Shown piece by piece: positions 3,530-20,520 of a DNA stretch of 64,000 nucleotides (positions within the stretch are counted from its first letter, which is position 1; each line of letters begins with the position of its first letter). The stretch spans positions 3,657 to 67,656 of the forward strand of contig JASGDY010000131.1 of NCBI GenBank assembly GCA_047606825.1, in the 5' to 3' direction. A model generated the notes under the pieces. It made no database searches. It was not told the DNA's origin and worked only from the letters and a program-made list of their open reading frames with translations. The stretch comes from Chitinophagaceae bacterium. GTDB taxonomy: Bacteria > Bacteroidota > Bacteroidia > Chitinophagales > Chitinophagaceae. The translations under genes and the position numbers were made by a program.

Positions 3530-6256
3530 TTATAATACCGATATTACGGTTTTGCCAGAGATTCCGTTTACCCCATGTGCACTCAATACTATCGTACCTC
3601 TGCGCCCCTGTTCCGGCTGGATAATGACGAGCGCGTACCCACCAAGCGTTTTGCGTTCCGGAAGAGAAAACCCTTGCAGGTCGGAAGGGTCGCCGTTGTC
3701 AGTTGCGATGATTTTCCCTGGGCCGCTGATATCAAAGCGCAGCATCTCGTCCGCATTTGGCACGGTAATCCCGTCTTTGTCTTTCAGCTGTACCGTGACA
3801 AACACACGTTCATCAGCACTCGGCACCGCACGTTTTTTGTCAGCCTGCAATGTAATGGACACCGCATTGCCAGCAGTGTGCACTTTTTCCTCCGCCCAAT
3901 GCTTTCCTTTCTTGTATGCCACGACCTGCAATACACCAGGCTCATACACTACACTGTCCCATCTAAAGCGATATTCGTATTGACCTCTCTTTTTCCGGCC
4001 CAAGGATTTTCCGTTTAAAAACAATTCGGCTTCATCACCTGAACTATACACATGTACCGGAGTTATTTTCCCGACCCTTTCGGGCCAGGTCCAATGCGGC
4101 AGAATATGCGCCATTGGCAAATCTGGCCGCCAACGGCTCTGGTACAGGTAAAACCTATCTTTCGGAAAACCTGCCAGGTCTATGATGCCCGAATAGGAAC
4201 TCCGGGACGAATAGTAAGGAGTTGGTTCACCCAAATAGTCAAATCCTGTCCACACAAACTCTCCAGCAATATATGGATGACGATCCTGGGCGGCAAATAC
4301 CTTGTCGGGAGATGCCCCAAATGCCGCAGTGTATAAATCATAAGAACTTACAAACCTATGTAACGAATCTCCACCCATATCATCACTTATAGGAGCACTA
4401 GTCCCCTCAAATACCGGAAACATATAGGTACCCCTTGAACTCAGGGTAGACGCGGATTCGCTACTCTGGATCATTTTGGACGGAAAAGCTTTTTGGAATG
4501 CACCATACAACGGCGGAGTATGGATACCTTTCAAGGCTGCATAAGCCGACGCATCCCGGATACCTTCCCCCTGATAGTTGACACTCAACACATCCATCTC
4601 TTTTGGGAAAGGCATATAAGGTTTGGCATAGTTCATGGAAGCTGTGGCAGGACGCGTCGTGTCCTCCTCATGGACTATTGTCCGCAACTCATGGGCGATA
4701 CGCGCTCCTGCCGTATCCGTATATTGTTCACCTACTTCATTACCAAAACTCCACTCAATAATAGAAGGATGGTTTCGGTCACGTCGTATCATCGCACGCA
4801 GATCTGCCTCATGCCATTCAGGGAATATCAGGTGAAAATCCAGCGGGGTTTTCCCCTTTTCCCAACAGTCAAATACTTCATCGATAACCAGAAATCCCAT
4901 TTCATCCGTAAGTTTCAGCAAGCCGGGATCGGGAGGATTATGGGACATACGAATGGCATTGCATCCCATTTGCTTCAACAATTCCAGCTGTCTTCTGGCC
5001 GCACCGTAGTTAAAGGCCATGCCGAGTGCCCCCAAGTCACTATGCTGGTTGACTCCCTGTATGCGTACGGGCAGATCATTGACCAACAGGCCTTTTAAGG
5101 AATCGAAACGTAACTTCCTGATACCAAAATATGTAGTGTAACTGTCCAATACTTTACCATCCTGCACAATATAGGTAAGTGCCGCATACCGGTTTGTCAC
5201 GGCATGAGGCAATGGTTGCCATAATGCCGGATGGGGAATATCAGTTGCCAATTGCAGGATTTCTGACGTATGGCCGACTAACCTTATTTTGGTTACCGGC
5301 AGCACCTTTACTTTTTTCCATTGCTCCTTTTCTCCGTTGCCCACATAATAAATGGAAGTCTGCACACTTACTGCCTGCGACCGGGCACCATTGTTTTCCA
5401 GCGCTACGGACATCTTCCATCCAGCGGAAGCGGCAGTTACATTTTGAGTGGTAACAAAAGTACCCCATTGGGAAATGTGTACGGCATTGGTTTTGACCAG
5501 CCGCACATTGCGGTAAAGACCACCGCCCGGATACCAGCGTGCGGAATTGGATGGATTGTCCAGACGAATAGCAAGCTGGTTTTCCTTACCGTATTGAATA
5601 TACGGTGTCAGATCCAGCCGGAAGGAATTGTAGCCATAGGGCCAACCGCCAACCAAATAGCCATTGAGCCATACCATGGCATAAGACATGGCACCATCGA
5701 TATCCAGATAAATAGACTTTCCATGATCGGAAGAGGGTATCGCTATTTTCTTACGATACCAGGCTATCCCCTGCAAAGGCAACCGTCCCATACCACCGCC
5801 CACAGGCACGTCTTCTCCTTTATAAAAAGGCTTGCCAATAGCCCAGTCATGCGGCAGCGACACCTTTTCCCACCCCGAATCGTCAAAACTGGCTTGGGTA
5901 AACGGGAAGTCGATACCGGGATTGGCTGCGGGGCGTAGATGCCGCTGCTGCGGATCACGAAGGAAAGGGTTGCCAGTAGGCAAAATCCACGGTTTTAGCA
6001 CAAATTGTTTTTGGGTAGCTTTTTCGGAAATGTCGGCCCTAGTATCTGCCACCTTACTGTCGTTGCGGTCCCTTACTTCCGGACGGACATCATATATCAG
6101 GCTATCCCCTCCCTGGTCATAACGCATAAAGTACCAGCCTGTTCGAAGATCTTCCGAATCACGTACCGCCACCATCTGCCCGGCTACAAACCGAACGGAA
6201 GCCAGAGATGCCATTACTATAAGAAGTGCTCTGTTCATTCGCATGCTGTCAATCAT
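3530..6256 (-). CDS. Glycoside hydrolase family 2 (beta-galactosidase-like), secreted
   Basis: GCNAIRMSHNPP, RDRNHPSIIEWSFGNE (acid/base), GEFVWTGFDYLGEP, GIIDLAGFPKDRFYLYQS; signal peptide. Confidence 0.92.
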   Translation of the reverse strand: MIDSMRMNRALLIVMASLASVRFVAGQMVAVRDSEDLRTGWYFMRYDQGGDSLIYDVRPEVRDRNDSKVADTRADISEKATQKQFVLKPWILPTGNPFLRDPQQRHLRPAANPGIDFPFTQASFDDSGWEKVSLPHDWAIGKPFYKGEDVPVGGGMGRLPLQGIAWYRKKIAIPSSDHGKSIYLDIDGAMSYAMVWLNGYLVGGWPYGYNSFRLDLTPYIQYGKENQLAIRLDNPSNSARWYPGGGLYRNVRLVKTNAVHISQWGTFVTTQNVTAASAGWKMSVALENNGARSQAVSVQTSIYYVGNGEKEQWKKVKVLPVTKIRLVGHTSEILQLATDIPHPALWQPLPHAVTNRYAALTYIVQDGKVLDSYTTYFGIRKLRFDSLKGLLVNDLPVRIQGVNQHSDLGALGMAFNYGAARRQLELLKQMGCNAIRMSHNPPDPGLLKLTDEMGFLVIDEVFDCWEKGKTPLDFHLIFPEWHEADLRAMIRRDRNHPSIIEWSFGNEVGEQYTDTAGARIAHELRTIVHEEDTTRPATASMNYAKPYMPFPKEMDVLSVNYQGEGIRDASAYAALKGIHTPPLYGAFQKAFPSKMIQSSESASTLSSRGTYMFPVFEGTSAPISDDMGGDSLHRFVSSYDLYTAAFGASPDKVFAAQDRHPYIAGEFVWTGFDYLGEPTPYYSSRSSYSGIIDLAGFPKDRFYLYQSRWRPDLPMAHILPHWTWPERVGKITPVHVYSSGDEAELFLNGKSLGRKKRGQYEYRFRWDSVVYEPGVLQVVAYKKGKHWAEEKVHTAGNAVSITLQADKKRAVPSADERVFVTVQLKDKDGITVPNADEMLRFDISGPGKIIATDNGDPSDLQGFSLPERKTLGGYALVIIQPEQGRRGTIVLSAHGVNGISGKTVISVL

Positions 6257-6372
6257 TTAACTCCCGTAAAGATAAACCCAGATTAGATTAGATTAGAGAA
6301 ATTCAACGACTTGAAACGTATCATTTTTCTATTGCGTAACCTGGGTTAAATCAAGAACTTGTTTGATCCTGC

Positions 6373-8058
6373 TTATTTCAGCTGCAATCCTTCTAAAAAT
6401 TTATAATAAGCCGGTTTTTTATTAAACGAGCTGTCCCAAAGCAATGGATAATCTGGTTTTAATTTTGTATTTATCCAACTGGATTTATCATCAATTCCCC
6501 AGACAGAAATGCCATACCGCTGTGCGGTGGGCACATTGGTCAAATACGACTCTGCTAAATATTTATACTTAGCCGCCTGCTGCGTGTACAAAATAGGTGT
6601 GGGTATAAATGTAACGTTGGACGAAGGCGTAGTGGTATTAACCGGGTTAATGGCAATATCCAGCTCAGACACGCGTATCAGCAAACCCAGTTGTGCCAGT
6701 TTGGTGAACACATTATCCATACTGGTAGTGGGAAGGCTGTAATCCATGTGGAACTGTACGCCCACGCCATCAATGGGTGTGCCCATATCCTTTAACCGGC
6801 TTACTAAAACTATAAACGAGTCTAATTTAATTGCATTTGATTCCAGGTTATAGTCGTTTAAGAAAAGTTTTGCATCAGGATTGGCTTCATGAGCGGCCAC
6901 AAAGGCCTTATAACACATGCTGTCAAGACCCAGATATTTTGCACGGTAAAATTTTCCGCCGCTTACATCATAATCATCTGTGCGGGCTACCCCATCCTCA
7001 TCAATGGGCTCGTTTACGACATCCCAGGCATTTACGGAGCTTTTATACCTGCCTACCACTGTTTTTATATAGTTGACCATATTTGTGTCAATCCGATATT
7101 TAATTTCTTCATCAGTGGGCGCTATTTTCGTTATAACCGTACTTCCGGATCCGGTTTGCTCCAGCCTCAGGCTATCGATATAGTAAGTATTGGCATCGGC
7201 GCCTAAATCAAAAACCAGCGTATGGGTGCTGCCGGTAGCGGTAAACGACCATGAATATTGCTGATAACTGGAGCCTATTACCTGGTGGGATAAGTATTGG
7301 GTACCTGTACCGCCGGTAATTTCAAATCTAAAACCATTTGAACCTACCTCACTCGCTTTTGCCCAAACTTTGATTGTATAATTTACACCAGAGGTAACAG
7401 TTAAAGCAGTGCTCGCCAGTTGTACCTTCCATGAATTGCTTTGACCGTTTGAAACAGTATTGACCACCTTTAAGCATCCGTCACCATGATAACTTTCTGC
7501 TGAAGATCCCATGGATATTGTTGCATTCTGGGTATTGTAAACCGACCAGTTTGCAAATGGTGCTGTTCCCGAACCGGCTGTTTCAAAATCGTTATTGGGA
7601 ACAGTTATCGTAGTAGCCGAAACAACTGATGTGTCATAAGACTGCGGCTTAGTAATTAAACTATCAACCAGGTAGGTTGTTTGCTGCTGGCTGTGCCAAA
7701 CCAGCGTGTGCCCAAAAATGCTTAAGCCTGCGCTGATTGCGGCATCTACAAAAGCATCGGCGGTAGTAAAATTGAACACACCTGTGGAACTAAGCAGGGA
7801 CGCATGTTTCATACTGTTGCCGGGGGTAACATTATTAAACTGGGTTTTAACTATATATGCATACATGCCATTACTTAAAAGTGAGTCCTCAGATACGCCG
7901 GCGCCAATGTAAAACAACACAGCATCTTTCAGCTTAAGAGTGGTGTCTGCGGTTAAGGTGCTTTGGGTTCCGTAATCCGCTTTTTTACATTTACTAAAAA
8001 TAGCCGCAAGCAGGATGCCTGTAATAACCAACAGTGCGGGTTTTATATAATTTTTCAT
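6373..8058 (-). CDS. GH10 endo-1,4-beta-xylanase lipoprotein with a CBM4/9-like module inserted in the catalytic barrel (Xyn10C-type)
   Basis: Lipobox AAIFSKC. GH10 motifs TPGNSMKH, GHTLVWHSQ, WDVVNE and VSELDI. About 190 aa beta-rich insert (PNNDFE...YIDSLRLEQ) between HTLVWHSQ and WDVVNE. Confidence 0.9.
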   Translation of the reverse strand: MKNYIKPALLVITGILLAAIFSKCKKADYGTQSTLTADTTLKLKDAVLFYIGAGVSEDSLLSNGMYAYIVKTQFNNVTPGNSMKHASLLSSTGVFNFTTADAFVDAAISAGLSIFGHTLVWHSQQQTTYLVDSLITKPQSYDTSVVSATTITVPNNDFETAGSGTAPFANWSVYNTQNATISMGSSAESYHGDGCLKVVNTVSNGQSNSWKVQLASTALTVTSGVNYTIKVWAKASEVGSNGFRFEITGGTGTQYLSHQVIGSSYQQYSWSFTATGSTHTLVFDLGADANTYYIDSLRLEQTGSGSTVITKIAPTDEEIKYRIDTNMVNYIKTVVGRYKSSVNAWDVVNEPIDEDGVARTDDYDVSGGKFYRAKYLGLDSMCYKAFVAAHEANPDAKLFLNDYNLESNAIKLDSFIVLVSRLKDMGTPIDGVGVQFHMDYSLPTTSMDNVFTKLAQLGLLIRVSELDIAINPVNTTTPSSNVTFIPTPILYTQQAAKYKYLAESYLTNVPTAQRYGISVWGIDDKSSWINTKLKPDYPLLWDSSFNKKPAYYKFLEGLQLK

Positions 8059-8098
8059 CTGTTTATTTTTTTATTTTTCAAATTGCCAGATGGAATTC

Positions 8099-8153
8099 AG
8101 CATAAAAATTTTCATCACTGTGGGTATAAAATCTGTTCGAAAATTTTTATGCT
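8099..8153. other. Intergenic perfect 15-bp inverted repeat (AGCATAAAAATTTTC / GAAAATTTTTATGCT) with 25-nt loop
   Basis: Arms at 8099-8113 and 8139-8153, read directly. Confidence 0.75.
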
Positions 8154-8203
8154 TGATTTCATATACCGGAATTTATAATTAATTCAGAATCGTTTTTAAG
8201 GGA

Positions 8204-9355
8204 TTAAGGTTCCTGGACAAACTTGATATTGTCGAGATTTAATTCGGAAACCGTTCCCGATGTGCCTACCTGCGCAAAATCCACTTTAGTGATTGTTGTC
8301 GGATCGATCATGGTTGTTCCCTCAACCGGCGTGGCAGAACTATAGCCATATCCAATAGTAGATAACTGTATCGTTGTGGTTTGCCAGCCGGTCCAGTTCA
8401 CACTCATATATTTGGTATAAACAGTGCTTACAGCCGTGCCATCTGCAGAATTGGCCGTTATAGTTACTCTTATCTTTGTGGTAGATGAATAGTCGCCCGG
8501 GTTGGCATCAAAGCTAAAATATATTTTATCTGCAGAAGCGGTCAGCTCCAGGGGCGTGGTATAAGTGCTCGCTCTCGGATTAAAGCCAACCCAGCCGCTG
8601 GATTCGGGGTTTACAACTGATAATTTGACAAACAGGCCTGAAACCGGATCCGGTGTCGCATTGGTATAAGAGGCGGTAATGGAACCGATGTAGGAGCTGC
8701 CCCGCGAATAAGCATCCCAGGTTGGACAAACGCCATTGCCGTCGAAATCTGTAAGCAGTATTTCCCCAAAACTAATCTGCGCCGTTCCGCCGGCCGTTAC
8801 AATAACCAACTGGCCGGAGCTGACACCATCAGGGACCGTGAACCGTATCTGAGATTCACTGTCAATGGTGTAATCTGTTACTTCGACTCCGTCCAGTGTA
8901 ATGGAGCTGATGTTTGCAAAATTGGTACCGGTTACTGTAATCTCATCGCCGCTTACACCGCTTATTGGTGAAATGGACTTGATATAAGGTATGGGCTGAA
9001 TTACTTTAAACTGAACCGTAACGGTGCTGCTGTCGCTGTTTTTTAAAACCACATCGTTCCACCCAAATTTGGCGCCGCTAGGTACATTGCAAAACAATAC
9101 AGAATCTGTGTTGTACGTAGAATTGAGATAGGTAGCTTTTATACCTCCAAAATCAATGGCTACAATATTGCCAAGGTTTTGACCGGTGAAATAGAAAAAC
9201 TGCCCCCTGATGCCGGAATCCGGTACGGCCTTTACATTGGTGGGTACCACTATTTCATTTTTGGTACAGCCTGTATGGGTAAAAACCGATCCTGATACAG
9301 CAATCAGTATTATAATATATAGTGAATACTTTTTCATCTTACTCTTTTTAGTCAT
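8204..9355 (-). CDS. IPT/TIG-domain surface glycan-binding lipoprotein (SGBP-B/XusE-like)
   Basis: Lipobox THTGC; two IPT/TIG-like repeats (PYIKSISPISGVSGDEITVTGTNF); C-terminal beta-sandwich ending LDNIKF; immediately downstream of susD. Confidence 0.8.
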   Translation of the reverse strand: MTKKSKMKKYSLYIIILIAVSGSVFTHTGCTKNEIVVPTNVKAVPDSGIRGQFFYFTGQNLGNIVAIDFGGIKATYLNSTYNTDSVLFCNVPSGAKFGWNDVVLKNSDSSTVTVQFKVIQPIPYIKSISPISGVSGDEITVTGTNFANISSITLDGVEVTDYTIDSESQIRFTVPDGVSSGQLVIVTAGGTAQISFGEILLTDFDGNGVCPTWDAYSRGSSYIGSITASYTNATPDPVSGLFVKLSVVNPESSGWVGFNPRASTYTTPLELTASADKIYFSFDANPGDYSSTTKIRVTITANSADGTAVSTVYTKYMSVNWTGWQTTTIQLSTIGYGYSSATPVEGTTMIDPTTITKVDFAQVGTSGTVSELNLDNIKFVQEP

Positions 9356-9359
9356 TTAA

Positions 9360-11003
9360 TTAGTAATAGCTAACAGCTGGAACATCTGCCGCAAGATTCG
9401 GGTTTTGGTCTATCTCGCTTTGAGGTATGGAAAAAAGAAGCTTTGAGGCATCGAATATAATTTTATTGCTCACCACGGAGCCGCCGCCATAACCGCTGTA
9501 CCTTCCTCTTTCCCGCTGGCTGAGCCAGGTAATCGCATCTGCCTGCGGCATCCTCAGCACATCATACCAGTACATACCCTCAAAAGCAAATTCCAGCCTG
9601 CGCTCGTGGAGGATGTCGGCAAAACTTATGCTGGTCTCGGAGGCCAGCCCGGCGCGGTTCCTCACTTCGTTAAATGCGGCCAATGCATTTGCATCGCTGG
9701 TTGATGTTCCACCTGCCAGTATGGCTTCTGCATAAGTGAGCAACACATCGGCATACCGGATCATATAAGTATTAATCCCGGTACTCATAGAATAAACGCC
9801 CCCGGTAGAAGCATTGTCTGCGTAAGTTCCCACCACATATTTTTTTGCATTGCCTCCGGTAAGGGAAATATATCCGGGATAAGTATAGCCTCCGCTTGCC
9901 TGTAGTAATTCAGAATAAGTATCGCTTATACTGCCGCCAACCGGGTTAACCATATAAGTTGGTTTTCTTCTTAAATCCGTATAAACATTACTTACAATCC
10001 CTTCTTCCTGAAACTCGGTCTGTAGATCGAGTGTTGGCCTAAAACTGCCCCAGCCATCGGTGCCGCCGGTGAGCCCCTGGTTGTAAGCGGCGCAATAGGA
10101 CTGGGTAACATTGCCTGTACCATAAGCGCCGCTGGCATTGCTGGCAACCCATTGCAGGGCAAAGATCGATTCTGAATTGTTGTTGTTTTTTGTATAGAAC
10201 AGATCGGCGTAGTCACTTAGCAGCTCATATCCGTAAGTAGACTTATTGCTGATGACAGCCCAGGCTTCTTCCGCTGCTGCCGCATAATCCGTAGCCGGGG
10301 TTATACTGGCATCGGCATTGTTAGCCGCTCTTGTCAGGTAGACCTTTGCCAGTAACGCGAGTGCGGCTCCTTTAGATACACGCCCCGCATCGGTTTGCGT
10401 ATTAGGCAGATAGGTTTCTGCAAATTCAAGATCAGTGATTATAAATTTGTAAATATCCTTTACGATGTGTTTTGGCTGCAGATAGTCCGTCTCTATATCC
10501 AGAGTTTCCGGAATAATGGGTACTTCCCCATACAGCCGGACCAGGTAAAAATAAGCGATGGCCCGGTGGAATCTGGCCTCCGCCAATGCCACGTTCAACA
10601 CAGAGGTATCCACACCCGACGAATACAGTGAAATGTTTTTCATTACTGCATTGGCCTGCCCTATAACCTGGTAAAGACTTGCCCAGCCTTTATAAAGATA
10701 TTGGTTACCGGTAGTAAAAGACACGTTTTGGAACTGCAGCATATCCGCATCTGCATCGCCGGTTGAGTTGCCCGAACAAACATCCCCAACGCCCATACTG
10801 AACTGGCAGTTGAAGAAAAACCAAGGCTGTCCATACAGCGCGGCAGTAGCAGTCTGCACGCCGGTTGCGGTAGCGTACACTTCTTCAACAGTATAGTTAC
10901 TTTGGGTAGTGCCGTCAAAGAAGGATTTTTTACATCCGGCAACCGCAATAACTGCAAAAAGCAGAAACAATTGTAATTTTTTAAATATCGAATATGTTTT
11001 CAT
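9360..11003 (-). CDS. SusD/RagB family glycan-binding lipoprotein (pair 1)
   Basis: Lipobox VAGC; AEARFHRAIAYFYLVRLYGEVP, GRVSKGAALALLAKVYL, IRYADVLLTYAEA, ERRLEFAFEG. Start taken at ATG 11003 (MKTYSIF). Confidence 0.93.
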   Translation of the reverse strand: MKTYSIFKKLQLFLLFAVIAVAGCKKSFFDGTTQSNYTVEEVYATATGVQTATAALYGQPWFFFNCQFSMGVGDVCSGNSTGDADADMLQFQNVSFTTGNQYLYKGWASLYQVIGQANAVMKNISLYSSGVDTSVLNVALAEARFHRAIAYFYLVRLYGEVPIIPETLDIETDYLQPKHIVKDIYKFIITDLEFAETYLPNTQTDAGRVSKGAALALLAKVYLTRAANNADASITPATDYAAAAEEAWAVISNKSTYGYELLSDYADLFYTKNNNNSESIFALQWVASNASGAYGTGNVTQSYCAAYNQGLTGGTDGWGSFRPTLDLQTEFQEEGIVSNVYTDLRRKPTYMVNPVGGSISDTYSELLQASGGYTYPGYISLTGGNAKKYVVGTYADNASTGGVYSMSTGINTYMIRYADVLLTYAEAILAGGTSTSDANALAAFNEVRNRAGLASETSISFADILHERRLEFAFEGMYWYDVLRMPQADAITWLSQRERGRYSGYGGGSVVSNKIIFDASKLLFSIPQSEIDQNPNLAADVPAVSYY

Positions 11004-11034
11004 GACTGTATCGTTTATTAGGATTTTCAGTAAA

Positions 11035-14000
11035 TTAAAATTCAGCGTTAATACCAAATGTCACTGTCCGGGGCACCGGATAGCGTCCCATGTCAATGCC
11101 GGTTCTGAATATATCATAGTTCATGGAACCTATTTCAGGGTCGTAACCTGAGTAATGTGTGAATGTGTACACATTCTGAACGGCTATATAGGTCTTTAGT
11201 TTACTGATGAATTTCGGAACGATTTTACTGTTGGGGGAAATAGTGTACGCCAGCTGTATGTTTTGTATTCTCAGGTAAGATCCGTCTTCAATAAACCTGT
11301 CTGATATTTGTGTGGCATTTCCGTTAGGGTCGCCATTGGCATACCTAGGGATATTGGTATTCGGGTTTTCGGGTGTCCATCTGTACTTTACAGATTTCAT
11401 CTGATTGCCCGAAGCGGCTGTCATTCCCTCGCCCCAGACCCTGGTATAGTTGTACACATCATTACCATAAACGCCGTTGGCAAATATGGTTAAATCAAAG
11501 TTCTTGTATGTAAAATTGTTATTAAAACCAAAGGTGAAGTCTGGATTGGGATTACCAATGATGGTACGGTCATTTTCATCTATTACCCCGTCTCCGTTAA
11601 TGTCTTTAAATTGGATATCACCCAGATAAGTTCCTGATTTGGCATCAATACTATTGCCATTTTTAATGGGTACCGAATACAATTTTTCCAAGTTGCGTAT
11701 GATACCCACGGTTTTCAGGCCATAAAACAGCCCTACCGGCTGTCCGACAGTAGTATAGGTGATAGTTTGACCACCATTTGTTGCTATGGCTCTATATATG
11801 GCACTTACGCTTGTTGTAAGCTTTTTGACTGTATTTTTATAGCGGGAGAAAATGAGCGTGCTGTTCCAGTTAAAATCTTTCTTACCGGCTGTATGATATT
11901 TTAGCGTCAAATCAAATCCCCTATTCTGCATTTTACCCAGATTCACATACCGCGATGCAATTCCGGAAGCCGAGCCTTGGCTGGCAACACCGGTGCCGGT
12001 TATATAGGGAGCCGGGTCGGGAAAGAGAAATTTATCAGATATTTTATTATACAGTTCAAGTGTCAGATCGAACCGTTTTGCAAATGACGCGTCTATTCCT
12101 ATGTTGGTGGACTGCTGGTGCTCCCATGTCAAATCGGGGTTGGCGTAATTGCCCTGAACATAGCCTGCGCCGCTACCAAATGCAGTTTGGTTGATGAACA
12201 CCTGATTCATATAAGTACCCCAGGCATATTGAGATATGTTTTGGTTGCCCACTTCACCATAACCGACCCTTAGCTTAAGGTAGTTCAGGAATGGATTCTT
12301 TTTAAGAAATTTTTCTTCTGAGATCGTCCAGGCCACTGCCGCCGCAGGAAAATAACCCACCTGTTTACCCGGGGCAAAATTGGAAGATCGATCCCTGCGC
12401 AGCGTGCCGGTAAATGAATACTTATTATCAAAATTATAGAGAAGCCGTCCAAAATAGGATTCCTGTGCATTATAGCCCTTGGATTCTGTGCTGCTGGCAG
12501 TAGCCGGGTCCCCTTCGCTTAATGAGGTGGGGTCGTTTGTTAAAAATCTAGATCTTGATGAAGTGATTACATCATACTTGTTCTGGCTTACTTCGCGGCC
12601 CAGCATAAACGTAATATCATTTCTTTCAATTTTGTTTTTATACGTCAATACAGACCGCCAGTTCCAGTAAGCAGCATTATTGGTCTGCACATTCATGGTG
12701 TTAAGTGTATTGGTCACACTTCCCCATGTATAAGTGGGCACAAATGTTTGTGATTTATTCCAGTTAAGATCGGAGCCGAAATCTGAACGCAGGTTGAGAT
12801 GTTTACCAAAAGCCACCTGTGCAAAAAGGTTATTCAGAAACCGGCTTTTATCATTCGTGGTATGCCAGGTTTTGGCCTGTGCTACAGGGTTGCCTGCGCC
12901 CACACTGCCAAAACCGCCATTAGCCTGGGTCTCATCGGGGCCGCCAAAAGTGCCATCTACAACATTATAAACAGGCACATCAGGAGCCTGCAATATGGCC
13001 ATAGCTATTACATTACCAAAGCTGTTATTGGCATTATTGGTCAGGGTTACTTTTTGGTTATTAGTTGAATACGTAGCATTGATACCCATTTTCAGCCATT
13101 GGGTCACATCCGTTTCTAAGTTGAGCCTCACAGATTTCCTTTTCAATCCGGATCCTATTATTGTTCCTTCCTGGTCGTAATAGTTGCCGGATATATAATA
13201 GTTAACACCCTTTGTTCCTCCGGATAAGGCTAATTGATGGTTTTGCTGCACGGCTCTTGTAAATATTTCCCGCTGCCAGTCTGTACCATAACCTAACAGG
13301 CTGATATTGGCATATTGGGATTGCCGATCCTCACCCCTAAAGTCAGCTATATCATTTTTATAGGCGGCATATTCCTTTAGGTTGAGCAATTCCAGATATC
13401 TCGAATTGTTGGAGGCACCTATATAAGAATCGAGAGTAATTTTGCTTTGGCCGGGCTTGCCTTTTTTGGTGGTAATGATCACTACCCCGTTAGCTGCTTT
13501 ATTGCCATAGATAGCGGTAGCAGACGCGTCTTTTAAGATATCAACGCTCAATATATCCGACGCATTAAGGCTTGCCAGGGCACTCATTTTTGTTTCACCA
13601 TCCCCTGCAATGGAGAGCACATCGTTGTTGCTGTTTCCGTCCACGGGTACACCGTCGATAACGTATAAAGGCTCATTGCTCCCGAGTGAAGAAATACCCC
13701 TGATCTTTACAGATACGCCGCCACCCGGTGCTCCGGAGTTTTGGGTGACACTTACACCGGCAACACGCCCCTGCAACATTTGGTCGATACCGGCCTGGGG
13801 CACATTCCTGATGTCTTCGGCCTTGATGGACGATATGGCTCCGGTAAGGTCTTTTTTCTTTACCTCACCATAGCCGATAACTACCACCTGGTCAAGCTGG
13901 CTGCTGGTCGATTGTAATTGTACTTTTAGTGTTTTGTTGGTTTCGCTCACCAATATTTCTTGTGTGCCATAGCCCAAATAGGAAAATATGAGCGTGCTTT

Positions 14001-14250
14001 TGGGTGATGTTTGAATTTTAAACGAACCATCATTTTCGGTAACGGTACCTTTTGTGCCGCCTTTAACTCGTACTAATGTGCCGGGTAGCGGCTGTTTGTT
14101 TTCGTCAGTCACCAAACCTGTAACGGTAACGAGGTTTTGAGAAAAACCCTTTAAGTTGCTAAGCACAATAAAAGCAATTAAACAGCATGTTTTTAAGCTT
14201 TTTTGACACTTGCTTGCAGGGCTTAAGAAACAGATGAAAAGTTGTCTCAT
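11035..14250 (-). CDS. SusC/RagA TonB-dependent outer-membrane transporter (pair 1)
   Basis: QVVVIGYG, LKDASATAIYGNKAANGVVIITTKKG, NPDLTWE, C-terminal YPVPRTVTFGINAEF. Confidence 0.95.
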   Translation of the reverse strand: MRQLFICFLSPASKCQKSLKTCCLIAFIVLSNLKGFSQNLVTVTGLVTDENKQPLPGTLVRVKGGTKGTVTENDGSFKIQTSPKSTLIFSYLGYGTQEILVSETNKTLKVQLQSTSSQLDQVVVIGYGEVKKKDLTGAISSIKAEDIRNVPQAGIDQMLQGRVAGVSVTQNSGAPGGGVSVKIRGISSLGSNEPLYVIDGVPVDGNSNNDVLSIAGDGETKMSALASLNASDILSVDILKDASATAIYGNKAANGVVIITTKKGKPGQSKITLDSYIGASNNSRYLELLNLKEYAAYKNDIADFRGEDRQSQYANISLLGYGTDWQREIFTRAVQQNHQLALSGGTKGVNYYISGNYYDQEGTIIGSGLKRKSVRLNLETDVTQWLKMGINATYSTNNQKVTLTNNANNSFGNVIAMAILQAPDVPVYNVVDGTFGGPDETQANGGFGSVGAGNPVAQAKTWHTTNDKSRFLNNLFAQVAFGKHLNLRSDFGSDLNWNKSQTFVPTYTWGSVTNTLNTMNVQTNNAAYWNWRSVLTYKNKIERNDITFMLGREVSQNKYDVITSSRSRFLTNDPTSLSEGDPATASSTESKGYNAQESYFGRLLYNFDNKYSFTGTLRRDRSSNFAPGKQVGYFPAAAVAWTISEEKFLKKNPFLNYLKLRVGYGEVGNQNISQYAWGTYMNQVFINQTAFGSGAGYVQGNYANPDLTWEHQQSTNIGIDASFAKRFDLTLELYNKISDKFLFPDPAPYITGTGVASQGSASGIASRYVNLGKMQNRGFDLTLKYHTAGKKDFNWNSTLIFSRYKNTVKKLTTSVSAIYRAIATNGGQTITYTTVGQPVGLFYGLKTVGIIRNLEKLYSVPIKNGNSIDAKSGTYLGDIQFKDINGDGVIDENDRTIIGNPNPDFTFGFNNNFTYKNFDLTIFANGVYGNDVYNYTRVWGEGMTAASGNQMKSVKYRWTPENPNTNIPRYANGDPNGNATQISDRFIEDGSYLRIQNIQLAYTISPNSKIVPKFISKLKTYIAVQNVYTFTHYSGYDPEIGSMNYDIFRTGIDMGRYPVPRTVTFGINAEF

Positions 14251-14329
14251 AATTTATAGTTATTGGTTATATTTTTTGGTTAGTAAAGGCGTTGTTAAAC
14301 CTATAATGCTTTTGTGTGAAAATTGAGCA

Positions 14330-14732
14330 TAGCCAACATTAAGATGGCACATCAAGCCTTCAATACATGGGATTTTACTTCAGGAAATAAAGAGTTGTAA
14401 GAATTAAATGGTCTGGTTTTATATACATAATCGTGCTTCAACGCTTTCAAAGATTGTTTTGTATAAACCCATATCTGATCGATAGAGGTTGGATCAGCGC
14501 GTTTTAATGAACCATCTGTACCTGTCCCGGTTTTTAAGTTGATGACCGTTACCCCCGCTAAGAGTTTGCCATCCTTGTCACTGACATGACCCGTTATCTT
14601 TAGGGTTTGGCCATGTGCATTTTCTAACGAACCCAGACAAAAAAATACGATTAAAAGCAAGATAGAGTGTAAAAAAGGATGCGTCCCTACGCAAGCAATC
14701 CGTTTTACCTCATTCAGATTTGGTCTGTCCAT
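14330..14732 (-). pseudogene. Truncated susC remnant: 5' end of a susC2-like allele fused across a 990-bp in-frame deletion to an internal segment, then frameshifted
   Basis: 14518-14732 matches 19965-20179 and 14330-14520 matches ~18787-18977. The junction carries the shared trinucleotide GTA (14518-14520; 18975-18977 and 19965-19967 in the intact gene). A 1-bp deletion near 14370 breaks the frame. Confidence 0.88.
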
Positions 14733-14858
14733 AGCATGTTGATTTAATAATAGTTAAGAATGTGAAAGAAGATTTTTGTATCATTTTTTTTACTTCTCCT
14801 TGCCAATTACGCAGCGAACAAACAATCGTTAGGCAAATGTAAAGCAATTCTTAAATAA

Positions 14859-14872
14859 TGTAACCGATTTCA
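14859..14872. promoter_or_regulatory. LacI-type operator TGTAACCGATTTCA, just upstream of minus-strand -7 element TACATTTG (14834-14841)
   Basis: Matches the TGNAACCGATTNCA consensus; lies within the duplicated promoter. Confidence 0.7.
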
Positions 14873-15066
14873 AATATTTTTTTAAAAAATTCTACGGCCT
14901 CTCATTTTCAAAAAAACTGCAAAAAAATCGAACTGCCCTTCCAGCAAAAGAAAAAATTCTAAAAAGCAACCAAACTACATGGTTTAGCCCCTAATAAGAC
15001 ATAAAACTTACACAGTTTTATTATCTAAGGACAGTCTAACATTGCAAATCCTAAAATTTAACAATG

Positions 15067-17040
15067 TCATTCTTGATATTGCGGATTTTGATATGCTGTC
15101 TTTTCTGCATCCGTTAGATCAAGAGCATCAATTTGAGTTTGAGGAATCGGACGTAAATAATATCCAGAAGTTAAAGTACGCGTAACAGTAGAGGTAGAAT
15201 GGTCCGAAAAGCTAGCACCGGTTCCAATTGTATAAGTACCAGCCAAATCAGTCCACTGCTGTGTTCTAACGAGATCATACCAACGATATCCTTCACCGTA
15301 ATATTCCCTTGAACGTTCCGCTAAAATATAAGCAATGGTAATGGTCGAAGGAGTAGCTGCTATCATTTCTGCACTATAATCTTCCGAAACCTCCTCATTG
15401 TTATACCTACTATAAGACCAAACACCCGCTCTAGCCCTTATCACATTAATCAAACCTCTAGCAGTACCGTCATTTGCATAAGTGCCGGAGATAGCACTAG
15501 TAGTAGCACCTTTCACAGCCGCTTCCGCTGCTATAAAAAAAAGTTCAGAAAACTTTGCTATATTCCAAGGTCTTGTACTACCAGCATTAGGCTCTCCTAA
15601 TCCTGTACCATTATCCGTACGATAAGGACCAATTTTCCAGTTACCAGGATACAAGATCCTACTTACTTTACTAGGTTCTACTACATAATCAGCGCTGCCT
15701 GACAATGTACCAGCTCCAATATTACTTGCATACGTTGTATTACTATAATCGACATCCGTTGTATCATTATTTAGAAAAGTTAATACAGCATCACCTTCAG
15801 TTATAGCTAATCCATTTGCATTATACAATTGAGAATAGCTATCGCTAAGTCCAGATTCATCCATATTACACCTATATCTTAAAGTAAATGTCCCATCATA
15901 TCTAGAATCATTTACTTTGTCAGAAAACGTGGTGGTAAAAACAGATAATGGCGGGGCAATCATATACCAAGGCCGACCCAGATCCTGTATTGCTTGCCGC
16001 TGTACTGAATTTACCAGTGTACTACTCCAATCAGAGGTAATCGAACTATTAATTAACGGATAATTAAATTGTTCAAACCAGCTACCAAAATTATCAGGAG
16101 AAGAACCGGAAGAATAAGAAGTACTAGAAAGTCCACCATACTGAGTAGAAAGACTATGATCTGCATACAACAGAATCTCGCTATTTCTATCATTAGTAGC
16201 GACATTCACCTGGTAAAAGCTACTCTGCAACCCAAAGCTTCCGGGATTATTTATGGCTTCAGAAGCCACATCATAGGCTTCTTGATAATACCATGCCGCA
16301 TTATGGCCGTCAGGATCTGTTCTGTCCGCAGTGGGATATGTCGGGATATTATTGGGATTCTCAAGCCACCATGCATATGTCAAATATGCTTTTGCTAAAT
16401 ATAACCTTGCCAATGTTTGTGTCACGCCTCCCGTGACTCTTCCAGCTACTGGTAAATTGGCAATCGCCGAATCTAAATCAGGAAAAATAGCTTCTGTGTA
16501 AACTTCAGAAACGGTATTGCGGGTAGAACTTTGAGAAGACGAGGTATTATATAACAAATCACCAGATCCCAAATCCAATGGCACACCTCCAAAAGTCTGC
16601 ACTAACATAAAATAATAAAAAGCACGAAAAAAATGCGCTTCAGCTATAACAGAACTTTCAACTCCAGCATCGTAACCATACTCGATAACACCATTTGCGG
16701 TGTTTATACCGACGAAGGCATTTGTCCATAATGTATTGGCATTACTATTGGATCCGGTTAGGCTTCCCGTTCCAGACATATCCATTATCCCAGATGAATT
16801 GGTTCCATATGTACTTTCGTCAGTACCTGTTTGACTTGCATCCAAAAAATAACCATTGCCATAATAATAACGCAAATTATAATATAAATAGGTAATTGCG
16901 CCCGTAATTCCAGCTTCCGTTTTGAAATATTCAGAAGTATAGGTACTTTTGGATGTTTCATCCAAAATTTTTTTACATCCAGTAAGACCAACTATTAAAA
17001 TAGCAAAAAGCATAACTAGATTTATATAAATCCTTTTCAT
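15067..17040 (-). CDS. SusD/RagB family glycan-binding lipoprotein (pair 2)
   Basis: Lipobox LTGC; AEAHFFRAFYYFMLVQTFGGVP, AERSREYYGEGYRWYDLVRT. Start taken at ATG 17040 (MKRIYINL). Confidence 0.93.
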   Translation of the reverse strand: MKRIYINLVMLFAILIVGLTGCKKILDETSKSTYTSEYFKTEAGITGAITYLYYNLRYYYGNGYFLDASQTGTDESTYGTNSSGIMDMSGTGSLTGSNSNANTLWTNAFVGINTANGVIEYGYDAGVESSVIAEAHFFRAFYYFMLVQTFGGVPLDLGSGDLLYNTSSSQSSTRNTVSEVYTEAIFPDLDSAIANLPVAGRVTGGVTQTLARLYLAKAYLTYAWWLENPNNIPTYPTADRTDPDGHNAAWYYQEAYDVASEAINNPGSFGLQSSFYQVNVATNDRNSEILLYADHSLSTQYGGLSSTSYSSGSSPDNFGSWFEQFNYPLINSSITSDWSSTLVNSVQRQAIQDLGRPWYMIAPPLSVFTTTFSDKVNDSRYDGTFTLRYRCNMDESGLSDSYSQLYNANGLAITEGDAVLTFLNNDTTDVDYSNTTYASNIGAGTLSGSADYVVEPSKVSRILYPGNWKIGPYRTDNGTGLGEPNAGSTRPWNIAKFSELFFIAAEAAVKGATTSAISGTYANDGTARGLINVIRARAGVWSYSRYNNEEVSEDYSAEMIAATPSTITIAYILAERSREYYGEGYRWYDLVRTQQWTDLAGTYTIGTGASFSDHSTSTVTRTLTSGYYLRPIPQTQIDALDLTDAEKTAYQNPQYQE

Positions 17041-17050
17041 TTTGTAAGAT

Positions 17051-20000
17051 TTAGAATGATAAGTTAACACCTAAGATATAATTGTATGTAGTCGGGGTAT
17101 TATAACCAACAACCAATAGCCTACTAGGATAACCAGAAACGGCTTGATTGGAAGTACCCGTAGAATTTGGCTCTGGATCCAAGCCCGATTCTTTATGATA
17201 AGGGGAGAAAAAAACAAAAGGGCCTTGGGCCGTCGCATACACCCTTAATCTAGTAATACCAACTTTTTTCATCCAATCCCTGCGAAAATTATATCCCAAT
17301 GTCATTGTTCTTATTTTTAAATATGAACCACTGAAATATCCCAGGGTCGAACCATATTTAGGATTATTGCTACTGACAATCCCACCTGGATAAGGATATT
17401 TTGCATTTGTATGTTCCGGCGTCCAATAATCAACTTTTACATTATTCTGACGTCCAGACAAAGTATTCAAATAGCTAGCTGAACCATATAAAGTACTAAT
17501 AAGAACGCCTCCACTTTGAAACCCGCCGACAATATTCAGTTCCCAATCTTTGTAGGTAAAATGTGAATTGAAGCCGCCCTGGAATGTTGGCTGTAGATTA
17601 ATTATTTGTCTATCGGCAGTACCAATGGCTCTGGTGGGTGATCCATCAGAATTATAAGTACCGGTATATTGCACCTTTATCATACCGGCGTTACCCCCTG
17701 GTTCATAAGTCTGTAGATATTGATAATCGTTATCCGTTGTTTGCCAAAGACCTATCTTCTTGTAATCATAAACAACATCGATTGGATGGCCAACAAACCA
17801 CCAGTTAGTCTGATCTTCCGTAGCTCCACTATTTAATGCTGTTAGCTTATTCCTATTAGCATATACATTAATGCCCGCATCCCAAGAAAAACCTCCCGGA
17901 TTGTCTATAATCGTTCCATTAAGAGATATTTCTAGACCCTTGTTCTGTGAACTACCAACATTCTCCAATACCTGGCTCACTCCCGAACTTGCTGGCAAAC
18001 TAACATACTGCAACAAATCACTGGTCTTTTGACTGTAATATTCGATGGTGCCGGATATTCTATTGTTCAATAATGAAAAATCCACGGCAAAATTCCAGGT
18101 TTTTGTATATTCCCAACCTAAGTCAGAATTAGCTAAAAGTGAAGTATAATATCCTGTTGCATTCGTTGAAGTTCCATAATTATAACCAACAGAGGTTAAT
18201 TGCCCCTGGGTAGTATAAGGATCAACCGCTTGATTAGACGTTTGTCCATATCCTACTCTTAACTTCAAGTTATCCAAAAAATGAACATTTTGCATAAAAG
18301 CTTCTCTGGTTATATTCCAACCCACAGAAATCGCTGGATATGTATGCCATTTGTGACCTGCTGCTAGAACAGATGATCCATCTGAACGCAAAGTTGCAGT
18401 AGCCATATATTTATCGTCAAAAGAATATATGAGCCTTCCCATATATGATTGCAATCCTCTTTGCCAATAGCTCTGGGAATTAGGATCCACAGTGATGGCA
18501 CCGTTTTCATCCGTTACTGCCCCAATATTATAAAATTGAAATGCAGTATTTTCAATGCCAGTTGCACTAACTGTTGAATACCAATAAGTAGTTTGCTGAT
18601 TAGAATATAGTCCTGTAAAGTTTATCTTATGTTTAGCTGCAAAAGTGCGATCATAAATTAACAGATTTTCAATAATCCAATCATTTGTATGCGAATTACT
18701 GATTGTAGCTGTTGATATCGAAGATTCAGAATAGCTAAAAACGCCATATCCTTGGTAGTAACCGTAATTACTTTGGCGATAGTTCAAGCCAACATTGGCA
18801 CGGTACTTCAAACCTTCAATACCTGGAATTTTTACTTCTGCAAATAAAGAGTTATAAGAATTAAATGGTCTGGTTTTATCTACATAGTCGTTATTCAACG
18901 CTTCCAACGATTGTTTTGTATAAACCCATATCTGATCGATAGAGGTTGACACTGCACGTTTTAATGAACCATCTGTATCGTATGGATTAATTAATGGCGA
19001 AGCAGATAGAGCGCTATAAGAGCTTAATGAAGAACCGTTTGTAATCGAAAAATTCGAATTACTATTAAAACCTATCCTGATATTTTTTCCAAGCCATTGA
19101 TCTAATGATATGTGGAAAGCATATCTGGTATAGTTTTGCAAAGGCATGACCGCCTCATCACGGTAATAAGAAGCCCCTAAACTATAACTACCCCTTTTTG
19201 TACCACTGGTCATATTAATATCCTGGCTTGTAACGTTTCCCGTAGTGTACAGAAGCTTCTGCCAATCCGTATTTACAGCTCCAGAGGAATCTTCATCAGT
19301 TCCTAAATTAGGGTAGATGTTTGCTATTTCCTTTAATGTGGTATATTCCCGCCAATTCATCATAGGAATCTTCAATGCAGTCTTTAAACCATAATAACCA
19401 TTATATGTTACCTTAGGATCACTTCCCTGATTACCTTTATTTGTCGTCACTAATATAACCCCGTTAGCACCGCGAGATCCATAGATCGCAGTGGCAGAGG
19501 CGTCTTTTAAGATATCTAAACTTTTGATTTGGTTAGGATCTATATCGGCAAATGTTCCGGGGAAAGGTATACCATCCAATACGATAAGGGGGTCATTGGA
19601 TGCATTCAGGGATCTTGACCCACGAACACGGATTTGCGCGGTAGCCCCTGGCTTACTATCTGTCTGTAAGATCTGAACACCTGCCACCCTTCCTTGCAGG
19701 GCTTGGGAAACATTGGCCGAAGGCATTTCATTCAAACTTGCGCCAGAAATAGAAGCAACAGACCCCGTAACAGCTTCTTTGCGCTGCGTACCATATCCCA
19801 CAACAATGACCTCTTCTAATTGCTTGGATATTGGCTCCAAGATCACCGTTAGAGGAGATTGATTAGACACTAATATTGATTTAGAGGCGTATCCTATATT
19901 ATTCATCTGAATGCTGTCCCCGACAGAAGCGGCAATATTGAAATTACCTGTTTCATTGGTAGCGGTACCTGCCCCGGTTTTAAGGTTGATGACCGACACG

Positions 20001-20179
20001 CCCGCTAAGGGTTTGCCATCTTTGTCACTGACATGACCCGTTATCTTTAGCGTTTGGCCATGTGCATTTTCTAACGAACCCAGACAAAAAAACACGATTA
20101 AAAGCAAGATAGAGTGTAAAAAAGGATGCGTCCCTTCGCAAGCAATCCCTTTTACCTCATTCACATTTGGTCTGTCCAT
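17051..20179 (-). CDS. SusC/RagA TonB-dependent outer-membrane transporter (pair 2)
   Basis: EEVIVVGYGTQ, LKDASATAIYGSRGANGVILVTT, NSDLGWE, C-terminal LGVNLSF. Confidence 0.95.
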   Translation of the reverse strand: MDRPNVNEVKGIACEGTHPFLHSILLLIVFFCLGSLENAHGQTLKITGHVSDKDGKPLAGVSVINLKTGAGTATNETGNFNIAASVGDSIQMNNIGYASKSILVSNQSPLTVILEPISKQLEEVIVVGYGTQRKEAVTGSVASISGASLNEMPSANVSQALQGRVAGVQILQTDSKPGATAQIRVRGSRSLNASNDPLIVLDGIPFPGTFADIDPNQIKSLDILKDASATAIYGSRGANGVILVTTNKGNQGSDPKVTYNGYYGLKTALKIPMMNWREYTTLKEIANIYPNLGTDEDSSGAVNTDWQKLLYTTGNVTSQDINMTSGTKRGSYSLGASYYRDEAVMPLQNYTRYAFHISLDQWLGKNIRIGFNSNSNFSITNGSSLSSYSALSASPLINPYDTDGSLKRAVSTSIDQIWVYTKQSLEALNNDYVDKTRPFNSYNSLFAEVKIPGIEGLKYRANVGLNYRQSNYGYYQGYGVFSYSESSISTATISNSHTNDWIIENLLIYDRTFAAKHKINFTGLYSNQQTTYWYSTVSATGIENTAFQFYNIGAVTDENGAITVDPNSQSYWQRGLQSYMGRLIYSFDDKYMATATLRSDGSSVLAAGHKWHTYPAISVGWNITREAFMQNVHFLDNLKLRVGYGQTSNQAVDPYTTQGQLTSVGYNYGTSTNATGYYTSLLANSDLGWEYTKTWNFAVDFSLLNNRISGTIEYYSQKTSDLLQYVSLPASSGVSQVLENVGSSQNKGLEISLNGTIIDNPGGFSWDAGINVYANRNKLTALNSGATEDQTNWWFVGHPIDVVYDYKKIGLWQTTDNDYQYLQTYEPGGNAGMIKVQYTGTYNSDGSPTRAIGTADRQIINLQPTFQGGFNSHFTYKDWELNIVGGFQSGGVLISTLYGSASYLNTLSGRQNNVKVDYWTPEHTNAKYPYPGGIVSSNNPKYGSTLGYFSGSYLKIRTMTLGYNFRRDWMKKVGITRLRVYATAQGPFVFFSPYHKESGLDPEPNSTGTSNQAVSGYPSRLLVVGYNTPTTYNYILGVNLSF

Positions 20180-20308
20180 ACCATGTTGATTTAATAATAA
20201 TAAAGAATGTGAAAGAAGATTTTTGTGTCATTTTTTTGCTTCTCTTTGTCAATTATGCAGAAAACAAACAAACAATCGTTTGGCAAATGTAAAGCAATTA
20301 TTAAATAA

Positions 20309-20322
20309 TGCAACCGATTTCA
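20309..20322. promoter_or_regulatory. LacI-type operator TGCAACCGATTTCA in the divergent susC2/GH43 intergenic region
   Basis: Consensus match; minus-strand -7 element TACATTTG nearby (CAAATGTA on + at 20284-20291). Confidence 0.7.
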
Positions 20323-20496
20323 AATATTTTTTTTAAAAAAATTTCCAGCCTCCCATTTTCGGAAAAAAAACTGCAAAAAAGCGAACTGATCTTCTAGCTA
20401 AAATCTAAAAGCAGTCAAACTACATGGTTTAACCCCTGATAAGGCATAAAGAATAACAAAAAAACGCCAAAAAATATAAAGCCAACAAGTATTTGC

Positions 20497-20520
20497 AAAT
20501 ATGCAACCGATTGCATATTT
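20497..20520. promoter_or_regulatory. Strongest operator copy: AAATATGCAA-CCGA-TTGCATATTT (10-bp perfect arms)
   Basis: Near-perfect palindrome containing TGCAACCGATTGCA, immediately upstream of the GH43 gene. Confidence 0.78.

Follow-up and report, generated by a model that had tools for sequence, protein, structure and literature searches.

Gene order and composite build of the locus

The window, which is the whole 64,000-nt stretch of Chitinophagaceae DNA analyzed here, harbors a polysaccharide utilization locus (PUL) with two SusC/SusD pairs. Its minus-strand arm starts with susC2 and susD2, which are separated by a remnant of susC2 from a second pair, susC1 and susD1. A surface glycan-binding protein (SGBP), a GH10 enzyme interrupted by a CBM4_9 module, and a GH2 enzyme follow (Table 1). 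A divergent operon encodes GH43, GH10, an MFS transporter, and GH67. Genomes of the same genus are devoid of the whole PUL.

Table 1. Features of the composite locus in window coordinates, with the susC2 remnant and its parent segments.
Feature	Position	Strand	Remarks
susC2	20179..17051	-	
Parent: susC2 promoter, 5′UTR, and codons 1–71	19965..20450	-	Operator 20309–20322, -7 box 20284–20291
Parent of the internal fragment in susC2	18787..18977	-	BLASTN/pairwise match
susD2	17070..15067	-	
Spacer after the susD2 stop	15006..15066	-	61 nt; two AT-rich hairpins, one with stems 15001–15008/15014–15021 and one upstream
Far-upstream part of the promoter copy	14885..15005	-	Copy of 20330–20450; 13 mismatches in 111 aligned nt and 6 indel events
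LacI-type operator TGAAATCGGTTACA (predicted)	14859..14872	-	One of 5 strict motif copies in 3.97 Mb
-7 box TACATTTG (predicted)	14834..14841	-	Bacteroidota TAnnTTTG type, 17 nt 3′ of the operator
susC2 5′UTR copy	14733..14833	-	10 mismatches in 100 nt and 2 indel events
susC2′ codons 1–71	14518..14732	-	Signal peptide and start of a CarboxypepD_reg-like domain; 202/215 identical to 19965–20179
Deletion junction	14518..14520	-	3-nt microhomology TAC (GTA on the plus strand), shared by both segments
susC2′ internal fragment, codons 402–464	14331..14520	-	1-nt deletion at ~14376/14377
126-codon ORF left open by the remnant	14352..14732	-	No Pfam family; dN/dS ~0.36
Truncated native leader of the susC1 module	14251..14330	-	Native operator and promoter absent
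susC1	14250..11035	-	
susC1 5′ part, ~450 nt	13790..14250	-	Other lineage than the rest of the gene; breakpoint ~13800
susD1	11057..9360	-	
TIG/SGBP-type surface glycan-binding protein	9355..8204	-	
GH10 interrupted by a CBM4_9 module	8058..6373	-	
GH2	6256..3530	-	With DUF4982 and GH2 C-terminal domain 5

At 63–68% identity, the nearest orthologs of susC2/susD2 are found in metagenomes, in a MAG, and in Dinghuibacter silviterrae. Four of five contexts of the nearest susC2 orthologs have the gene order susC-susD-GH2, and the GH2 proteins encoded there (L043, L044, L054, L055) are reciprocal best matches of the window GH2 at 62–63% identity, with the next paralog at 30–32%. These contexts and matches point to an ancestral unit promoter-susC2-susD2-GH2, which is usually accompanied by a nearby LacI gene and a divergent xylanolytic operon. 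The window departs from this order, with the remnant and the module susC1-susD1-SGBP-GH10 intercalated between susD2 and GH2. In the comparison with orthologous PULs that had been suggested in the initial annotation, GH2 directly follows susD in the four contexts. Judged by synteny, the window GH2 belongs to the susC2-susD2 unit rather than to the xylan module now in front of it, and the window cluster is a composite of two PUL types.

Two repeats lie in the spacers of the module. A short tandem repeat (TCTAA)x3 is found at 6270–6290 between GH10 and GH2, close to where the right-hand seam of the inserted module is presumed. The SGBP-GH10 spacer contains a 24-nt inverted repeat (8090–8162, 88% complementary, arms 25 nt apart) whose perfect core spans 15 bp, GCATAAAAATTTTC.../...GAAAATTTTTATGC. 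This inverted repeat may serve as an attenuator, as a processing site, or as a terminator inside the module.

The closest relative of the xylan module lies in a Niabella sp. MAG (L056; GCA_047606125.1, contig JASGEW010000023.1), in which a LacI gene, a susC-susD pair, a 330-nt spacer, and susC1-susD1-SGBP follow one another. Window positions 13861–8181 on the minus strand match positions 10372–16052 of this locus as a 5.7-kb block of 93.4% DNA identity, which covers most of susC1, susD1 (96% amino acid identity), SGBP (97%), and the start of GH10. The rest of the Niabella locus shares 64–78% nucleotide or 48–63% amino acid identity with the window genome. Its upstream SusC/SusD pair is 56–63% identical to the window pair at the amino acid level and is not orthologous to it (susC 56%). 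A 93% block beside flanks of 48–63% amino acid identity indicates that most of the module was exchanged between distant lineages.

The left end of the block lies inside susC1: at window position ~13800, where the Plug domain starts, the identity jumps from ~50% to ~94%. Over its first 150 residues, SusC1 shares 66% identity with the protein P0122 and 50% with the Niabella protein; over the other 920 residues, the values are 60% for P0122 and 94.7% for the Niabella protein. The split identities and the sharp breakpoint characterize susC1 as a recombinant gene, and the breakpoint indicates that a PUL module was exchanged horizontally by recombination within a conserved susC segment. The synonymous divergence of the exchanged block amounts to 0.13–0.31 and that of the remnant from susC2 to 0.20. 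The duplication that gave rise to the remnant and the exchange are hence of roughly similar age.

The susC2 remnant and its promoter copy

The remnant (14331–15005, minus strand) is a partial copy of the susC2 promoter, the 5′UTR, and pieces of the gene, with 87–88% identity over 675 nt. Two segments are matched to the parent. The first (15005..14518 against 20450..19965, 437/496 identical, 88%, E = 3e-179, BLASTN and pairwise alignment) spans 271 nt 5′ of susC2 and its first 71 codons, and the second (14520..14331 against 18977..18787, 167/191 identical, 87%, E = 1e-64, BLASTN) corresponds to codons 402–464. With such E-values, the match is far beyond chance. At the microhomology that joins the segments, 990 nt (330 codons) of the parent are absent; the join is in frame, with both offsets at 2 mod 3. 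Further downstream, a single A is missing from an A-run and shifts the frame, a stop codon follows at 14354–14352, and the homology to susC2 ends abruptly at 14331. The initial annotation had described a diverged promoter, operator, and ~70 codons that are fused through a GTA microhomology to a later part of the gene, with a 990-bp in-frame deletion and a subsequent frameshift, and all of these elements are confirmed by the alignment. The two pieces are the only copies of these susC2 segments in the 3.97-Mb assembly, and no more susC2 or susD2 fragments were found in the locus, e.g., before GH2, at word size 9. The most diverged part of the remnant is the far-upstream part of the promoter copy.

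The coding part bears typical properties of a pseudogene. It differs from susC2 by 15.5 synonymous and 20.5 nonsynonymous changes (dS 0.20, dN 0.069, dN/dS 0.36), compared to dN/dS values of 0.08–0.10 for the adjacent functional susC1, susD1, and SGBP against their 93% relatives. Ten outgroup SusC proteins served to polarize the 18 amino acid differences: 12 arose on the remnant branch and three on the susC2 branch, with three undecided, which places 12 of the 15 polarizable changes on the remnant branch. V410D, K458M, Y459C, and R460H are radical changes in the remnant at residues that are invariant in all ten outgroups. A functional SusC/RagA TonB-dependent transporter is characterized by a Plug domain and a complete β-barrel in one open frame, and the remnant retains only codons 1–71 and 402–464 of 1042. 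The homology continues into the noncoding flank (271 nt of upstream DNA), as in a relic of a segmental duplication, and the 990-nt deletion, the 3′ truncation, the 1-nt frameshift, and the dN/dS value illustrate a disrupted frame under relaxed constraint. By these sequence properties, the coding part of the remnant is a decaying pseudogene.

The promoter copy, in turn, is intact in its predicted elements. Its operator differs from that of susC2 solely at a degenerate position of the motif. The -7 box TACATTTG is the only perfect TAnnTTTG on the minus strand between 14200 and 15100, at a genome-wide frequency of 0.46 per kb per strand, and qualifies the copy as the carrier of a -7 element. The canonical -33 position (TTTG/TTG, ~19–21 nt 5′ of the -7 box) is taken by the operator half-site GGTTACA and holds no clean TTTG, which is likewise absent at this spacing from the parent and from related promoters. 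A layout of A-tract, TGnAATCGrTTnCA operator, 17–18 nt, and TAnnTTT[G/A] is common to seven susC promoters of five other genomes. When an 816-nt query was searched against 400 genomes of the family, only the 50–59-nt promoter core was matched, each time a few hundred bases 5′ of a susC gene. Read by this motif comparison, the promoter copy is intact and has the layout that is typical of the regulon. A σ70 promoter scan was uninformative for this phylum, and the TAnnTTTG motif was used instead. Known RNA families were absent from 13900–15400 at E ≤ 1.

Selection on the promoter core is not claimed. Remnant and susC2 differ by two mismatches in 51 nt and one indel in the core, compared to 23 mismatches in 211 nt of the other noncoding parts, a contrast that is suggestive and not significant. 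At the rate of the remnant, ~4 changes are expected in the 51–59-nt core, and 2–3 are seen; the contrast is insecure because the parent copy is constrained and only the remnant branch counts. An intact 12-position motif at 7–10% divergence has a chance of ~30–40% under neutrality. Additionally, codons 12–20 of both the remnant (14680–14693) and susC2 (~20127–20140) contain a 5-bp G+C hairpin with T6 behind it, which resembles a terminator by pattern. It was rejected as a transcription block, since it is also present in the 5′ coding region of the functional susC2, which must be expressed.

The operator belongs to a small set. The strict motif TGNAACCGATTNCA occurs at five sites in the 3.97-Mb assembly, i.e., at window positions 1296, 14859, 20309, and 20502 and at C113:12513, and all five precede xylan/xylose genes or a LacI gene, four of them in this locus. 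The fifth site (TGAAACCGATTACA, C113:12513–12526) is located directly 5′ of a LacI-family gene, with the gene for an FGGY (xylulokinase-like) kinase next in line. The encoded LacI protein is the best match (48–53%, next best 33–39%) of the LacI genes that adjoin the orthologous PULs. This gene (L050:1456–2511), which lies outside of the window, probably encodes the autoregulated repressor of the xylan/xylose regulon. Other genomes have conserved the operator ahead of their orthologous susC genes. The scan of cluster genes revealed no hybrid two-component regulator, and LacI-type operators are found at every promoter.

Operators of the LacI/GalR family are 14-bp palindromes centered on CG, e.g., cre or PurR-type sites. 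The sites described here share the TGnAAnCGnTTnCA symmetry, the overlap or abutment with core promoter elements, and the copy before the regulator's own gene with this family; they are CG-centered 14-bp palindromes as well, rare in the genome, and placed at the promoters of a coherent regulon. Unlike generic LacI/GalR sites, they are combined with a Bacteroidota-type TAnnTTTG promoter, and the predicted operator is positioned at about -30 to -43 in the susC promoters. In the esterase and GH43 promoters (1296–1317 and 20502–20523, plus strand) the predicted LacI-type site abuts the -7 box, with TGAAACCGATTACA directly followed by TATATTTG and TGCAACCGATTGCA by TATTTTTG, respectively. The operator of the susC promoters lies 17–18 nt further upstream, and one regulon therefore appears to use two distinct operator positions.

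The module itself has a shortened leader in the window. In L057 and L058/L059, the xylan module susC1-susD1-SGBP-GH10 stands alone and keeps its own operator-promoter, with an operator 261–263 nt before the ATG and, 3′ of this operator, a -7-like box and a long leader. Only the last ~50 nt 5′ of the window susC1 (CGCCTTTACTAACCAAAAAATA...ACTATAAATTATG) align with the 5′UTR end of these stand-alone modules and nothing further upstream does; the module-like sequence ends at most 80 nt 5′ of susC1, where the remnant has its 3′ end. From the shortened leader and the lack of further upstream homology it follows that the module lost its native operator-promoter, which leaves the duplicated susC2 promoter as the only recognizable promoter ahead of the susC1 arm. 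A module without a promoter of its own that now lies behind a duplicated promoter is the arrangement that is characteristic of promoter capture. In line with the initial annotation, which had reported no other operator in front of susC1, no further operator-like site with two or fewer mismatches was detected between susD2 and susC1. A relaxed -7-like box, TAGGTTTA, is present at 14303, 53 nt 5′ of susC1.

In the Niabella locus, the equivalent 330-nt spacer contains an intrinsic terminator (CCCGGTTT...AAACCGGG, then T6). An operator identical to the remnant's TGAAATCGGTTACA follows, and after 17 nt a -7-like box TATTTTGT; a near-operator lies ~30 nt before the susC1 ATG, and the spacer is free of any susC relic. 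The combination of terminator and operator-promoter indicates that the second arm is a separately terminated and repressed unit in this kind of locus. The spacer aligns with the remnant only over ~45 nt around the operator, and the Niabella promoter is not claimed to be orthologous to the remnant copy, as there is no homology beyond this stretch. In the window, the 61-nt spacer after susD2 folds with an MFE of -19.6 kcal/mol (z = -3.07 versus shuffles), and a G+C-rich intrinsic terminator was not called after susD2 by the terminator scan. In this folding model, the AT-rich hairpins are a possible weak terminator of the susC2-susD2 unit. With a terminator this weak, read-through from the susC2 promoter could make the promoter copy redundant.

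Origin of the remnant and transcription of the susC1 arm

Taken from its structure, the remnant is on balance probably the rest of a second promoter-susC2-(susD2) copy at the seam of the cassette, whose promoter would drive the susC1 arm. The history would start with a head-to-tail duplication of the 5.4-kb unit 20450..15006, with which the left boundary of the remnant fits exactly. Subsequently, the second copy would have lost 990 nt internally and, additionally, everything from susC2′ nucleotide ~1393 to 80 nt before susC1. Either this deletion or an insertion of the module into the copy would have removed susD2′ and the module's own promoter. All told, ~4.7 kb of the second copy are deleted, and the full promoter region, codons 1–71, and codons 402–464 survive. 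The order of events given here is the one we infer for the locus.

The promoter copy would then start the transcription of susC1-susD1-SGBP-GH10-GH2 with a leader of ~575 nt that contains the relic ORF. Provided that the predicted operator is bound, the susC1 arm would be controlled by the same LacI-family repressor as the rest of the xylan/xylose regulon, and the acquired module may thereby stay co-regulated with it. Promoter capture is well supported structurally, and the promoter copy is presumably active. The initial annotation had claimed that the downstream arm has an operator-controlled promoter of its own. The complete copy, the family-typical layout, the loss of the native promoter, and the Niabella equivalent speak for this claim, in which the promoter itself stands as a prediction.

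The same present function could have arisen from another origin. The remnant would in this case be the residue of an older resident (or donor) susC2 allele from a close relative at ~12% divergence, which was left behind when an intact promoter-susC2-susD2, or the xylan module with its upstream flank, arrived by transfer or recombination. The locus does recombine with foreign DNA, as the 93% block and the sharp breakpoint inside susC1 illustrate, and the pair 5′ of susC1 is nonorthologous between the window and Niabella (56% amino acid identity, versus 95% for most of susC1). Furthermore, a copy that was neutral since the split should show a pairwise dN/dS of ~0.55, which is higher than the 0.36 found, and part of the divergence may hence have accrued while both copies were functional. 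The absence of the whole PUL from same-genus genomes also fits an arrival from elsewhere. However, no known sequence is closer to the remnant than the resident susC2, and nothing more than 67% identical to susC2 was found among 5.8 billion proteins. The left boundary (15005/15006 versus 20450) is an exact prediction of the 5.4-kb head-to-tail duplication, and the nonsynonymous changes are concentrated on the remnant branch; the substitution counts behind this comparison are small. A susC2 allele as the source is considered possible, though less likely than the in-situ duplication. The initial annotation had likewise offered a scar from the exchange of a susC2/susD2 allele. Recombinational exchange has indeed acted at the locus, but it is seen on the susC1 module in the form of the 93% block.

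A second alternative concerns function. The remnant and its promoter copy could be inert debris, with the susC1 arm being read through from the susC2 promoter or started at a weak promoter near susC1. In classical xylan PULs, the tandem SusC/SusD pairs are usually regarded as a single unit, which agrees with this reading, as do the missing call of a G+C-rich intrinsic terminator after susD2, the nonsignificant conservation of the promoter core, the clear decay of the coding parts, and the relaxed -7-like box at 14303. Yet every promoter element is intact and placed as in the conserved layout, and the deletion of ~4.7 kb of the copy has exactly spared its promoter end. Structured hairpins are present 3′ of susD2, the terminator and operator-promoter in the equivalent Niabella spacer set the second arm apart as a separate unit, and stand-alone modules always come with an operator-promoter. 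Inert debris is thus an unlikely explanation for the promoter copy.

The third alternative ascribes a function to the 126-codon ORF, either as a small secreted protein or as a translated leader that is needed for downstream expression. The start context of susC2 and its signal peptide are kept, the 990-nt deletion is in frame, and a long leader, if translated, could in principle act against polarity. Nevertheless, the 126-residue product matches no Pfam family, and all that remains is ~26 residues of an 88-residue domain and a fragment of the barrel; the frameshift and the radical substitutions at invariant sites add to the decay. By our own estimate, ~36 substitutions without a new stop codon have a chance of ~20% under neutrality. 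No homologous element was found in other genomes or metagenome contigs: the remnant DNA had no match in 40 relatives, only the promoter core was matched in the 400 family genomes, and the junction 24-mer was absent from metagenome contigs. A functional ORF is accordingly very improbable, and the proposal of the initial annotation that the 126-residue remnant could act as a translated leader is left unsupported by an ORF that decays at invariant residues.

An assembly artifact, e.g., a chimeric join of strain variants in this 132-contig draft, can be practically dismissed, because the two copies differ by 12% and many indels and would not be collapsed or confused by an assembler, and because the interior of an 81-kb contig holds features as specific as the internal deletion, the frameshift, and the fusion to the susC1 leader.

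Relation to known systems and significance

The window cluster resembles the Xus-type xylan clusters, reportedly described by Dodd et al. in 2010/2011, such as xusA-xusE/xyn10C of Prevotella bryantii with its tandem SusC/SusD pairs; tandem pairs are also said to occur in the xylan PULs of Bacteroides ovatus (Rogowski et al., 2015). It contains two SusC/SusD pairs, a surface glycan-binding protein, and a GH10 interrupted by CBM4 in one orientation, together with the divergent GH43/GH10/MFS/GH67 operon. It differs from the Xus type in its LacI-type operator signature instead of a hybrid two-component system and in the separate histories of its pairs, the first being part of a susC-susD-GH2 unit and the second of a four-gene module that was exchanged horizontally. 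The promoter copy and the susC relic between the two pairs are a further difference. With the Niabella locus, the window shares the tandem layout, susC1-susD1-SGBP at 93% nucleotide identity, and an identical operator that is followed by a -7-like box after 17 nt. Niabella differs by its clear intrinsic terminator, the second near-operator by the ATG, the lack of a susC remnant, and the adjacent LacI gene.

A duplicated upstream promoter with a gene fragment that is placed before a downstream gene without an adequate promoter is reminiscent of the rnk-citT duplication, the case of promoter capture that Blount et al. reportedly described in 2012 for the long-term evolution experiment with E. 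coli. Unlike rnk-citT, the event in the window is old (dS ~0.2) and reconstructed instead of observed. The captured promoter is also one of the same regulon, so that co-regulation would be retained after the loss of the native promoter and no new expression condition would be gained. A literature search for susC relics or promoter duplications in PULs gave nothing relevant. The remnant illustrates well, in a natural setting, the known process of promoter capture through duplication, here at a cassette seam, and does not represent a new kind of element.

A more far-reaching generalization is improbable on present evidence. Distant Chitinophagaceae might swap SusC/SusD cassettes by recombination at the conserved stretch where the Plug domain begins, and the duplication of a resident promoter-operator would then wire the cassette into the LacI regulon of the recipient, with the relic ORF being kept since its translation protects the ~575-nt leader transcript from premature termination. 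If this were true and general, relics of a promoter plus the 5′ part of susC would mark cassette seams in many composite PULs.

For the locus at hand, the remnant dates and locates the seam of a composite polysaccharide utilization locus. It offers a concrete and testable case in which a horizontally exchanged transporter–enzyme cassette would be kept under the sugar repressor of its host after the loss of its own promoter. Additionally, a compact promoter layout (A-tract, LacI operator, 17–18 nt, TAnnTTTG) is defined for soil Chitinophagaceae, to which most studies on PUL regulation do not apply, and this layout could serve annotation as well as inducible expression tools.
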